Below are positions 20,649 to 62,770 of a DNA stretch of 64,000 bases, in pieces (positions within the stretch are counted from its first letter, which is position 1; every line of letters starts with the position of its first letter). A program made the position numbers and the translations under genes. Origin of the DNA: an uncultured Armatimonadetes bacterium (GTDB lineage Bacteria > Armatimonadota > Hebobacteria > Hebobacterales > Hebobacteraceae); assembly GCA_963716175.1 (NCBI GenBank), contig OY970296.1:4288001-4352000 (forward strand), in the 5' to 3' direction. The notes under the pieces were generated by a model. It was not told where the DNA came from and did no database searches. It worked only from the letters and a program-made list of their open reading frames with translations.

Positions 20649-21620
20649 TCAGGGGCAGATGCCTTGGATCACGCCCTTGTTGGGGGTGCAGGTTCCGGCG
20701 TCGCAGTTGATGTTGGTGCAGTGGGGGGCCGCGGCCATGAACGCGTCCGCCTTGTACCAGGCGGCATGACCGTCCGCGAAGCCGTAGTTGCTGCCGCCCA
20801 GGTGCCGGGTGTACTTCTCCCGGTAGGTGGAGTCGGTCATAAACTTGTCGTAGTCGCTCTGCGGGAAGGAGCAGACTGCGACATCCGGGCAATTCTCCCA
20901 GTCCCCGCCGCAGTTGGCATGGCAGACCTCGTAGAGCGTGGTCTCGGGGCCATGGATGTTCGGGAAGGGCATGGTATCGGCGCAGACCAGCCACAACACG
21001 GGGTCGCCGATCTGGGAGGTCGAGACGCCCGGGAACTCGTGCTCAGTGGTGCCGATGCCGATCTCCACCGCATCACCGGCCTCGGCGTGCCCGACACCCG
21101 AGAGCTTGCCCTGAGCGATGGTATCGGTCACCGACCCGCCCCATCCTGTCGGGAAGGCGTAGACGCACGGGCCCATCGGCAGCTCGTCAATGTTGTCCAT
21201 CAGGTACTGCCACCACGGGCTGGCGTAGCCAGGGATGATATTCGTGACGCTGGAGATGGACAGCTTCTGACTGGGGCACCGCCAGATGTCCCGGTTCTTG
21301 ACGTACTCGTCCAGGATCACCTGCCAGCGCAGGAAGGGGTGGGACCAGGTGGCGTACTTACAGTCCTCATCGCCCGCCCATTCGTCGAAGGCGGCCTGGT
21401 AGGCCTGGTCCTGATTCTCCCCAGGGGGCATCCGGTCGTAGTCCGTCAGGTACATCTGCACTGCAATAGCGACGTTCTTCACATTCGACAGGCACTGAAT
21501 CTTGCGAGCGGATTCCCTCGCCCGCGCAAAGACAGGGAACAGCATTGCGGCCAGGATCGCGATGATCGCGATCACCACCAACAGCTCGATGAGCGTGAAG
21601 CCTCTGCGTCGCGTAACCAC
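20649..21620 (-). CDS. Prepilin-type N-methylation / H-X9-DG (DUF1559) Cys-rich protein, paralog 1
   Basis: [55 protein letters not shown]. Confidence 0.92.
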
Positions 21621-22059
21621 GAACTTCTACCTCCTTCTGTGCGATAACCCAACTCGGTCAACACCACGGATGGGACGGCTCGTGCTTCGTAGCGAAGGAG
21701 CTTCGCTACTTCGCAGAGTAGCAGATACCGGCGCGCTCTTAGCCTCCTTCCTTAGCAATGTCCATTGGATTGCCGGCGCTTCGCGTCTGCCGTCCCTGCA
21801 GCGCTAGCACGCGGCCGGCAGGCAGGATGGGTGACGTCGCGAACCCGCCGTCTGCCCCCTGGCTCCGCCGCAGCTCGCCCGCGTTGTCACCTTGGCCCGT
21901 TCTTGAGGCTACCACATGAGCCTTCCCTGCGTCAAGTGTCGGAGGGCTGCGATCGCTCGATCGGATGCGATGGAACCTCAGACTGGTTCATCAGCAGGCA
22001 CGCGCCGCCAGGCGGCGAACAAGCGAGCAGTCTGAGATCAGTGCAACGCAGGAGGCCCG

Positions 22060-23019
22060 TTGATGCCCGTTAAGGACAGAGCCGTGCAGGTGGCGACGGT
22101 GACGCAGGACTACCGCGAGGCGGACTCCGCTGACGCGCTGGCGGAGGAGACGATCGAGCGGCTGGAGCAGGCCGCCTGTCGCCGCCCGGACATCGTGTGC
22201 CTACCAGAGACATTCTCTGGTGACAAGGCCGAGCCGGTGCCCGGACCCATGACGGAGCGGCTCTCGCAGTGGGCGCGAGACAGATCGTGCTATCTGATCT
22301 GCTCCATCGCAACCCAGGTGGGAGATCGCAAGTTCAACTCGGCTGTGTTGCTGGATCGCGGGGGCGAGATCGTGGGCAGGTACGACAAGATCCACCCCAC
22401 GGAGGGGGAGCTGAAGAATGGGGTATGCCCCGGGGACCCTGACCCCCCAGTCTTCCGCACGGACTTCGGCACCATTGGCATCCAGATCTGCTTTGACGTC
22501 AACTGGCGGGAAGTCTGGGCCAAGCTGAAAGACAAGGGAGCCGAGATCGTGTTCTGGCCCTCCGCCTACCCCGCGCATCGGCATCTCTCGGCGCTGGCCT
22601 GGCAGAACGAGTGCTACGTGGTGTCGGCGACCAAGACGCGGCCGTCGCGCATCTATGACATCAGTGGGGAAGTGCTGGCGCAGTCCGGGATGTTCCAGCC
22701 CTGGGCTGACGCACAGCTCCACCTGGGGAAGCGGCTATTCGAGATTGACTACAACGTGGGGCCGATGCGCAAGCTGGAGCAGAAGTACGGGCGCAGAGTG
22801 TTGATCCAGTGGTATCACGACGAGGACCGGTTCACACTGGCCTCCCTCGACCCGGAGCTATCGGTCGAGGACCTGATGGCCGAATTCGGGATACTGCCGC
22901 TTCGACCCTATCAGGCCAGGTGCGAACAGGCGATCGCGAAGGCGCGGGCGCGATATCAGAGGTCAGCCCCCTCGCCGGGCGGGCGCGCCGGAGGGCGAGG
23001 GCGGCAGAGGCCGCGGTGA
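22060..23019 (+). CDS. Carbon-nitrogen hydrolase (nitrilase superfamily)
   Basis: Catalytic triad contexts CLPE, YDKIH, ICFD. Confidence 0.9.
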   Translation: MMPVKDRAVQVATVTQDYREADSADALAEETIERLEQAACRRPDIVCLPETFSGDKAEPVPGPMTERLSQWARDRSCYLICSIATQVGDRKFNSAVLLDRGGEIVGRYDKIHPTEGELKNGVCPGDPDPPVFRTDFGTIGIQICFDVNWREVWAKLKDKGAEIVFWPSAYPAHRHLSALAWQNECYVVSATKTRPSRIYDISGEVLAQSGMFQPWADAQLHLGKRLFEIDYNVGPMRKLEQKYGRRVLIQWYHDEDRFTLASLDPELSVEDLMAEFGILPLRPYQARCEQAIAKARARYQRSAPSPGGRAGGRGRQRPR

Positions 23020-23023
23020 GGCG

Positions 23024-61580: not shown

Positions 61581-61676
61581 CTCCCCTACCCCGCGCTCTC
61601 ACCCGGGCCAGCGCGAGTTCGCAGCTCACATGGCGCGCGCCGCGCCCACACCGGATCGTCTGCCCTTGGCAGTCAG

Positions 61677-61706
61677 GGGACGGAGCGCGTGTCCGCGCTC
61701 CGTCCC
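61677..61706. other. Stem-loop between pilin-like paralog 4 and DUF6785 gene
   Basis: GGGACGGAGCGCG-TGTC-CGCGCTCCGTCCC, no U-tract. Confidence 0.7.
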
Positions 61707-61750
61707 TGGTCAAGCAGTTGCGTCAGGCGTCGCCAATGACACCAGCGCGG

Positions 61751-62770
61751 TTACGGGATGGGGGTGGGGCAGAGCCCCTCCACTGGTCGGCCCTCCGACA
61801 CCACGACGCCGTTGCTATTGCAGTAAGGGCGGACGGCGTTGAGTGCATCCGCGAGCATCCAGGAGGCGTGCCCGTCCATGAACCCGATGTTGGATCCCCC
61901 CAGGTGCCGGGTGAACTGGGCGCGGAAACTGGCGTCGGTGGGGAATCTCAGCATATCGTCCTCCGAAGCGAAGGCGCATTCGAAGGTCCACGGGCAATCC
62001 TCGGTGGCAACCGTCCCGCCGCAGGGGAGACGGCACAGATCATAGAGCATCAACTGCGAGAAGTAGATGGAGGGCTCGATGTTGACGTCGCCACACACCA
62101 CGAACCAGGCCGGATCGTCGACGCTCGAGGTTTTCAGGTCGAGGTTCTCGACGTCGTTGAAGCCAATGGTGGTCTCCACCGCGCCTCCGCCACTGGCACG
62201 GGCGGAGTCCCCCGCCGCGGACAGCGCCTGTTGGCGTATGCTATCGGTGACACTGCCGCCCCACCCAGGCGGAAATGTGGGGTCACAGGGCACGACTACG
62301 CTGTAGGAGTCACCCCATTGGCCCACGGTGTCCATCATGTATTGCAGCCATCCACCCGGCTGCGGGTCCGGCACGATCATCTTGGGAGTGCCGGCGTGCC
62401 TGGCGCTGGGGCACCGCCAGATGTCCCGGTTCTTCACATACTCGTCGAGGACCACGTACCACCTGAGAAATGGGTTGGCCCAGTTCTCCTGCCCGCAGCC
62501 TTCCGTGGGGCCATTGCCGCCGGGCCCGGTGTCGAAGAAGGCCTTGGCCTCCTGCCGATGCTCAGAGGGCGGCAACCGGTCGTAGTCGGTGAGATACATC
62601 TGGATAGCGGTAGCCGCATTCTTGACGTTCGCCAGGCATTGGATCTTGCGCGCTGATTCCCGCGCGCGAGCGAAAACCGGGAACAGCATCGCCGCCAGGA
62701 TCGCAATGATCGCGATCACCACCAACAGCTCGATCAGGGTAAAACCGCCTCTGCGTTTCATCGCAACCAC
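61751..62770 (-). CDS. Prepilin-type / H-X9-DG (DUF1559) Cys-rich protein, paralog 4
   Basis: [14 protein letters not shown]..; [25 protein letters not shown]. Confidence 0.92.

Follow-up and report, generated by a model that had tools for sequence, protein, structure and literature searches.

Massive paralogy, together with an N_methyl leader, a DUF1559 start and a C-terminal H-X9-DG motif, characterizes the DUF1559 (PF07596, 'SBP_bac_10') / H-X9-DG proteins of the Planctomycetota and their relatives. In Planctopirus limnophila, 68 DUF1559 copies form the biggest paralog group, whose function is given as unknown in a 2023 paper (PMC10632474), and Tuwongella immobilis possesses 91 copies combining N_methyl with SBP_bac_10, of which 25 were detected in membrane fractions (PMC8567305). 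Gold-labelled dextran binds to the pili-like fibres of DUF1559-rich planctomycetes (PMC5394234), but in the accessible text neither PMC5394234 nor PMC8567305 says which proteins build the fibres or what the family does. Among the archaea, Sulfolobus solfataricus has sugar-binding proteins whose signal peptides are of the pilin type and which depend on an assembly system resembling that of pili (PMC3047682). The present analysis deals with four pilin-like genes, P0001 to P0004, located in a 64,000-nucleotide window (C1:4288001-4352000) of the single-contig, 4,560,930-base genome of an uncultured wetland bacterium of the Armatimonadota. These genes are members of a lineage-specific subfamily, of about 45 copies, of DUF1559/H-X9-DG prepilin-like proteins, and their genomic context, the most informative result of the analysis, points to nutrient uptake.

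With respect to the DUF1559 family at large, the proteins described here match positions 2 to about 80 of the 268 profile positions only, and their middle part consists of a distinct Cys-rich scaffold. They resemble GspG and EpsG in the N-terminal helix and probably in the core but are 2.5 times longer, contain large inserts and occur in about 45 copies outside secretion loci. The resemblance to the Sulfolobus bindosome, with its class III signal peptides and Bas system, is one of principle, namely that of extracytoplasmic sugar-uptake binders equipped with a pilin-type N-terminus (PMC3047682). Whereas the archaeal heads belong to the binding-protein families of ABC transporters and feed such transporters, the heads considered here would be elaborations of a pseudopilin, not homologous as far as compared, the linked importers are predicted OPT-fold secondary carriers, and the setting is that of a bacterial diderm with secretins. 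Similarly, the SusD/SusC loci of Bacteroidota are alike in layout, each substrate locus comprising a binding protein, an importer, enzymes and a regulator, but they display no homology, the present genome contains two TonB-dependent receptor matches, and the pairing of binder and importer is not obligatory. No publication that connects DUF1559/H-X9-DG proteins with AraC regulons or DUF6785/OPT-fold importers was found in the literature, planctomycete supplementary tables not being covered, and the DUF1559 papers that were found assign, in their accessible parts, no function to the family.

Regulators of the AraC type (HTH_18) give 13 matches in the whole genome, none of them farther than 1.6 kb from a full-length member of the family, the random expectation for a 1-kb gene to fall this near a copy being 4.7%. 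Eight of the 13 are divergent from the copy, with spacers of 72-303 nt. From the side of the copies, an AraC regulator occurs within 2.5 kb of 16 of the 45, leaving 29 without one. In three related genomes, where some contigs end nearby, an open reading frame (ORF) with the prepilin motif occurs within 2 kb of 17 of the 37 AraC matches (9/11, 6/15 and 2/11, respectively), and an exclusive link across the family was rejected on these counts.

The DUF6785 family is expanded in the same genome, with 57 matched stretches, 38 full-length genes and 49 of the 4267 gene calls, and none was found in 14 control genomes. A DUF6785 gene directly follows seven of the 45 copies and lies within three gene calls of 12. 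The AlphaFold2 (AF2) model of the DUF6785 protein encoded at 59502-61580 (pLDDT 83) matches the OPT-family transporter YS1 of barley (7wst_A) with an E value of 6e-8 and template-modelling (TM) scores of 0.61/0.69 over 678 columns, the next fold match being far weaker (E 0.017, TM 0.11). By sequence profile, no match was found in the PDB, and Pfam reports DUF6785 and DUF6784 alone. The model predicts an OPT-family transporter fold for the DUF6785+DUF6784 protein. Three such genes occur in the window, at 1640-3616 (+), 24620-26620 (+) and 59502-61580 (-).

The census of neighbours comprised 195 gene calls, i.e., up to three of at least 120 amino acids (aa) on each side of the 45 copies. Of these, 177 fell outside the window, of which 147 were scanned against Pfam (the 30 left out are all shorter than 180 aa), and 27 window proteins were scanned as well; the results were tallied by hand over 36 neighbourhoods. 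A glycoside hydrolase (GH), polysaccharide lyase, sulfatase, carbohydrate-binding module or deacetylase occurs in 19 of these 36 neighbourhoods, a number that rises to 25 with the inclusion of sugar-type oxidoreductases, isomerase-like barrels and kinases, and to 31 if AraC or DUF6785 is accepted on its own. The genome is poor in classical uptake components, with two SBP_bac_8 and two TonB-dependent receptor matches in total. As a separate observation, CN_hydrolase and Peptidase_M55 genes recur beside paralogs, both in the window (P0001, P0002) and elsewhere (L078, L080, L082, L100), and some loci may target amide- or peptide-containing substrates instead of plain glycans.

We regard it as an even prospect that these proteins are substrate-specific binding heads mounted on a pilin stalk common to all of them, which would make them a functional counterpart of the archaeal bindosome. 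In such a system, a PilD-type peptidase would cleave the leader and the protein would remain on its pilin helix, which would serve either as an inner-membrane anchor or as a subunit in one shared type IV pilus or pseudopilus, the invariant stalk letting all copies interchange on one machine. Each head would bind one substrate class, mostly glycans or their breakdown products, and each copy would be induced with its own catabolic locus, often through the neighbouring AraC-type regulator. The captured substrate would then be handed to the importers of the locus (OPT-fold DUF6785 where present) and, subsequently, to cytoplasmic enzymes. A more daring version, in which any of the disulfide-locked heads can be loaded onto a single retractile type IV pilus or pseudopilus that reels defined glycans through secretins into the periplasm and on to OPT-fold importers, is conceivable but doubtful. 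The initial annotation had proposed, from the four window genes, an antibody-like repertoire of ligand-binding heads displayed by a pilus-type machine. A repertoire of different putative ligand-binding heads agrees well with the layout of one copy per catabolic locus, and the stalk-plus-variable-head architecture and the display machine are retained here, but the antibody-like part is not.

The four paralogs had been placed on the minus strand at 20649, 36513, 45162 and 61751, and ORFs were confirmed at these coordinates (Table 1). They are real, but they represent a small part of a family of 45 full-length copies plus fragments: a profile built from the four proteins gives 71 matches across the source genome, and a local hidden Markov model search of our own gene calls retrieves 54 matching calls, 45 of them full length. 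The motif G|FTLIE is kept in 42 of the 45; where the start codon is not in doubt, the leader measures about 5-10 residues and ends in Gly. A short basic leader of this kind, followed by Phe+1, Glu+5 and a hydrophobic helix of ~20 residues, is the signature of prepilin peptidase substrates. In the four-way alignment, P0001 is 47, 50 and 53% identical to the other three window copies. All four match PF07963 N_methyl (36.4-37.8 bits; Pfam cut-off 21.2) and TIGR02532 (30.9-35.3 bits; NCBIfam cut-off 16.3), and PF07596 DUF1559 scores 41.2, 53.3, 39.2 and 32.9 bits for P0001 to P0004, respectively (cut-off 23.3). The H-X9-DG model TIGR04294 (cut-off 19) gives 20.9, 27.1 and 21.3 bits for P0001 to P0003 and a marginally lower 18.3 bits for P0004, the H-X9-DG spacing being kept in all four and in every full-length copy listed.

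Table 1. Coordinates of the four pilin-like paralogs and of neighbouring features within the window.
Feature	Position	Strand	Remarks
P0001, pilin-like DUF1559/H-X9-DG paralog	20649..21620	-	323 aa; leader MVTRRRG, then FTLIE
P0002, pilin-like paralog	36513..37532	-	339 aa counted from first TTG; likely start ATG at 37526, with GGAGA in front
P0003, pilin-like paralog	45162..46208	-	348 aa counted from first GTG; likely start gives leader MRLRKG
P0004, pilin-like paralog	61751..62770	-	339 aa counted from first GTG; likely start gives leader MKRRGG
GFO_IDH_MocA, GFO_IDH_MocA, GHL10 glycosyl-hydrolase-like, GFO_IDH_MocA	16131..20526	-	Pfam; directly downstream of P0001
CN_hydrolase, secreted beta-helix protein, DUF6785+DUF6784 membrane protein	22060..26620	+	operon divergent from P0001; CN_hydrolase at 22060-23019, beta-helix protein with signal peptide at 23024-24592
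Strong terminator-like hairpin	36440..36470	-	14 pairs, 11 G-C, T-rich tail; just past P0002 stop
GC-rich hairpin and T-run	37641..37663	-	in P0002 5' leader
Peptidase_M55 (D-aminopeptidase family) and heparinase II/III-like protein	37764..40736	+	divergent from P0002; Peptidase_M55 gene at 37764-38783
PcRGLX-like / GH127-like protein	41526..44129	-	867 aa; signal-peptide-like N-terminus; next same-strand gene after P0003
GH4 glycosidase	58090..59418	-	no signal peptide; last gene of P0004 string
DUF6785+DUF6784 membrane protein	59502..61580	-	directly downstream of P0004, 171-nt gap
AraC-family regulator (HTH_18)	63031..63906	-	directly upstream of P0004

The relatives found by means of the conserved N-terminal peptides are metagenome-assembled genomes (MAGs) labelled Armatimonadota or Armatimonadetes. 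A P0001 ortholog, 85% identical, occurs in one of them (L006, with a 4.66-Mb chromosome), and a P0004 ortholog, 71-74% identical, in L007. In a tree of the head region, the window copies are separated from each other by 2.4-4.3 substitutions per site (family median 3.6), and the nearest tree neighbour belongs to another genome for 20 of 42 copies, P0001 and P0004 among them. These distances led to the rejection of a recent local duplication: the paralogs in the window are old and far from one another, with no local burst. The chromosome of a related MAG (L001) contains four pilin-like genes in tandem within 5 kb, whose best matches in the source genome lie at four separate places. Among 121 sampled Armatimonadota genomes, in which 17 candidates per genome were scored so that the sample gives no copy numbers for those genomes, full-length matches occur only in the source genome's own family (5/5 genomes), other Armatimonadota lineages being matched over the first ~125 residues only. 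The proteins form a distinct Cys-rich sub-family, found in this sample in a single Armatimonadota family. Against 1.84 billion cluster representatives, the profile collects 331,544 matches at E <= 1e-3, 162,649 at E <= 1e-10 and 2,944 at E <= 1e-30. In the ESM Atlas, the head alone retrieves only unnamed clusters (Verrucomicrobiota, Armatimonadota, Planctomycetota) and a DUF1559 cluster at 0.92.

Three regions of distinct conservation can be recognized among 42 aligned copies, region identities being median pairwise values. The first 46 mature residues are conserved at an identity of 0.96, with an entropy of about 0 across mature residues 1-40; 104 scaffold columns show an identity of 0.77; and 361 loop columns, which span P0001 residues 119-156, 171-199, 218-259 and 289-319, show an identity of 0.18 and 24% gaps. 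The best explanation for the conservation of the 46-residue stalk is that all copies contact the same partner surface, i.e., peptidase, platform or fibre subunits. As previously claimed, the shared blocks reach past the usual DUF1559 ends, the scaffold extending beyond the coverage of the DUF1559 model, which in all four copies begins at position 2 of the 268-position profile and stops at about 44-87. In P0001 numbering, the residues invariant in the four-way alignment are P95, L97, R98, W99, V101, L103, D104, E105, Y106, N109, D111, W113, R114, C115, P116 and S117 (block 1), P157, G159, W160, G161, G162, S163, T165 and D166 (block 2), D206, P207, V212, C213 and D215 (block 3), and R272-N278, G280, F281, D283, G284, H285 and A286 (block 4). 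The blocks named in the initial annotation are accordingly invariant, except that 'DW.NC' occurs in three copies only, DW being absent from P0004. The estimate of about 11-16 Cys corresponds to the 13, 13, 16 and 11 Cys of mature P0001 to P0004, respectively; in the whole family, a copy has between 8 and 18, most often 13, and ten alignment columns contain Cys in at least 80% of the copies. The head is also rich in Tyr and in Trp, the latter amounting to 3.6-5.7% as compared to 1.9% in the proteome. Judged from the sequences, it would consist of 270-300 residues rich in predicted disulfides, Trp and Tyr, with loops that vary from copy to copy.

The AF2 model of P0001 (pLDDT 87.8, pTM 0.84) comprises a helix at residues 10-61 and C-terminal strands at 276-314 that include the H-X9-DG block. 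In a VIA search of 48,161 PDB chains, pilins and pseudopilins fill all of the first 15 rows, every one with Z <5, the best being EpsG (4lw9; Z 4.3, root-mean-square deviation 3.3, 90 residues across model positions 33-290). By sequence, solved structures match the N-terminal helix only, with PulG (5wda) aligned over residues 8-98. The model suggests a pseudopilin core carrying large inserts. The TIGR01710 GspG profile scores 40.7-44.4 bits (E 1.6e-11 to 2.2e-10) over about residues 6-106, as against an equivalog cut-off of 88.85. Assignment as GspG equivalogs was rejected on account of these sub-cut-off scores, a length of 323-348 aa instead of about 135-150, and a window devoid of secretion genes. 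In terms of ancestry, they are probably GspG-like pseudopilins.

That no pilus assembly genes are nearby was confirmed, no Peptidase_A24, T2SSE, T2SSF or secretin match occurring inside the window. A prepilin peptidase and an assembly system, which the initial annotation had suggested looking for elsewhere, are both present in the genome: two Peptidase_A24 matches, 21 T2SSE stretches including seven near-full-length ATPases, in addition to PilT-like ones, 17 T2SSF platform stretches and nine secretins. The nearest set, located ~140 kb upstream of the window at C1:4137734-4148378, consists of PilB/GspE with an MshE-type c-di-GMP-binding N-terminus, a PilT fragment, PilC/GspF and PilD. Behind them come a GspG/DUF1559-like pilin of 455 aa, a pilin-like protein of 363 aa and a PilV-like protein of 814 aa. 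The string is a candidate for the machine handling the 45 paralogs. The classical pilins of the genome measure 135-137 aa.

With a GspG-like core and nine secretins at hand, the proteins could also be secretion adaptors, i.e., pseudopilins that recruit or expel the secreted enzymes of their own locus, the heads recognizing cargo proteins instead of substrates. GspG and EpsG are the best weak matches, a relative is annotated as 'type II secretion system protein' in one source, and signal peptides occur on the PcRGLX-like protein after P0003 and on the beta-helix protein at 23024-24592. However, the GspG scores remain far under the equivalog cut-off, and known type II secretion systems employ a handful of pseudopilins, as compared to about 45 copies here. 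Moreover, the co-oriented genes behind P0001 and P0004 encode proteins without signal peptides, whereas type II cargo enters the periplasm first; the absence of signal peptides fits import and cytoplasmic catabolism, not enzyme export. On balance, a role as secretion adaptors appears unlikely.

Adhesive or structural fibre subunits, used for attachment to particles or for envelope architecture, with catabolic neighbours merely co-expressed on polymer surfaces, represent a further alternative. An invariant stalk is what co-polymerizing subunits need, the genome contains PilT-type retraction ATPases, and dextran-binding fibres are described for planctomycetes (PMC5394234). At 320-350 aa, the paralogs are nevertheless much larger than the classical pilins of the same genome, and the one-to-one pairing with AraC genes (13/13), like the pairing with importers, argues for substrate-specific roles. 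The fibre-subunit explanation, which we hold to be rather improbable, overlaps with that of binding heads if the fibre itself is the capture device. The tight adjacency to AraC genes, together with ANTAR response regulators found near two copies, would also suit periplasmic sensors whose heads perceive the substrate and signal to the adjacent regulators without feeding any transporter. In the Pfam output, however, the AraC proteins possess no membrane segment, so that no route from the periplasm to the regulator is apparent, and 29 of the 45 copies are devoid of an AraC match within 2.5 kb, which makes a sensory role a very unlikely one.

The evolution of the stalk and of the loops bears on the last alternative. 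Synonymous codons are mixed in the stalk, with GGC/GGT/GGA/GGG used 14/12/10/6 times for Gly1 and the four codons of Ala18 used 16/11/8/7 times. Gene conversion as the source of the identical N-termini is ruled out by these scrambled synonymous sites, which show that the identity of the stalk is held by purifying selection on the protein. Within the stalk, the codons of Val10, Ile11, Ala12 and Ala15 form an exception, being near-fixed at the nucleotide level (block of codons 10-16), and 18-nt matches to the 5' consensus of the family were observed outside any paralog near C1:3199442-3199840.

Reciprocal best hits yielded 25 ortholog pairs, 16 of which are at least 70% identical. Across these 16 pairs, dN/dS amounts to 0.018 in the stalk, 0.075 in the scaffold columns and 0.261 in the loop columns, the latter being 72% identical with a dS of 0.77 within a range of about 0.7-0.8. 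Near-identical strains were compared on contigs assembled from four sediment metagenome runs, in which rare variants drop out, and the P0004 head shows 20 differences over 2138 bases (0.9%). The neighbouring gene diverges by about 1.2%, the counts for the adjacent DUF6785 gene being 24/1984 and 12/805 bases; the AraC gene shows 5/775 and 10/600, and a strain contig running across GH4, DUF6785 and the 3' end of P0004 shows 38 differences over 3213 bases. The loops, initially called hypervariable, thus deserve this term between paralogs (18% identity) but neither between orthologs (72%) nor between strains, which differ by ~1% in the head, much as in the flanking genes. Heads that are unlike between paralogs and yet stable within ortholog lines indicate functional specialization rather than ongoing hypervariation. 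In the same four runs, the 5' coding block of P0004 (window 62552-62745) reaches a summed contig depth of 1100-1750, as compared to about 5 elsewhere, and many loose contig ends of differing sequence begin at 62740-62750; depth and loose ends together mark the invariant stalk-coding block as a sequence present in many copies in those communities, where it interrupts assembly.

Antibody-like, rapidly varying heads for defence, antigenic variation or self/non-self recognition would be in keeping with the many paralogs, the fixed scaffold, the indel-rich loops and the high cysteine content, but they are improbable in the extreme and the term is abandoned here, since the 16 ortholog pairs and the strain data show every head to be a stable paralog passed on vertically, the copies are scattered over catabolic loci under sugar-type regulators, the synonymous scrambling of the shared 5' block opposes ongoing gene conversion, and PADLOC returned 0 matches for the four proteins. 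No diversifying machinery was noticed, no search having been aimed at such machinery.

Several points weigh against the interpretation as substrate-specific binding heads. The AraC link is weaker in two of the relatives (6/15 and 2/11), DUF6785 had to be rejected as an obligatory partner (7/45 adjacent), and five of the 36 neighbourhoods contain neither a catabolic nor a regulatory neighbour. The tally of enzymes stands without a genome-wide background rate, which leaves its enrichment unquantified, and the 4267 gene calls derive from our own GC3-based heuristic. Some of the neighbours are secreted enzymes, equally explained by a secretion role. With respect to structure, a Foldseek search of the P0001 model against the PDB gave nothing at E <= 0.001 (best E 0.24), no solved binding protein matches the head among the Foldseek or VIA rows obtained with the whole model, and the assignment of the pilin core is weakly grounded because all VIA Z values are <5. 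In addition, an averaged dN/dS is compatible with positive selection at a few sites.

The four window neighbourhoods differ in their organization. The genes downstream of P0001 are separated by gaps of -14 to 249 nt and have no obvious signal peptides, and a search for a terminator-like site after P0001 found none. P0002, in contrast to such a string, looks monocistronic in view of the terminator hairpin behind its stop. Convergent with P0002, a 918-aa protein (33658-36414, plus strand) with a signal-peptide-like N-terminus contains six InlB B-repeat-type domains and S-layer homology domains. The hairpin in the P0002 5' leader has counterparts elsewhere: of 42 paralogs, 12 have a GC-rich hairpin and T-run of the same form 140-260 nt before the start of the mature protein, as against 9 of 400 control genes. 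In the aligned leaders, a purine-rich stretch resembling a Shine-Dalgarno sequence recurs downstream of the hairpin, ahead of the true ribosome-binding site. The arrangement may be a conserved leader or attenuator; at the gathering threshold, Rfam has 0 matches in the window. The linkage of P0003 to the PcRGLX-like gene is uncertain because of a 1 kb gap. P0004 is preceded by an AraC gene on the same strand, and the trio of P0004, GH4 and DUF6785 recurs in the related genome that contains the P0004 ortholog, in another gene order, the GH4 ortholog following the P0004 ortholog. A look-up of RNA data sets for 58090-63906 listed none. A gas-vesicle cluster (50591-57661, plus strand) also occurs in the window, encoding an AAA_5 protein, a CDC48-like double AAA ATPase, GvpL/GvpF, and a GvpK fused to a gas-vesicle-protein domain.

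The family of this genome is small enough, and its surroundings are regular enough, to allow a testable hypothesis on the function of DUF1559 proteins. If the heads are substrate receptors, they would represent a third bacterial strategy of polymer capture beside the SusCD-type and ABC-type ones, the neighbouring enzymes would help to predict the ligand of each head, and the way in which uncultured Armatimonadota of wetlands and sediments feed would become apparent. A pilus bindosome, if it exists, would be a means of nutrient capture that relies neither on TonB/SusCD nor on ABC binding proteins, and it would explain the DUF1559 expansions of the Planctomycetota, Verrucomicrobiota and Armatimonadota.

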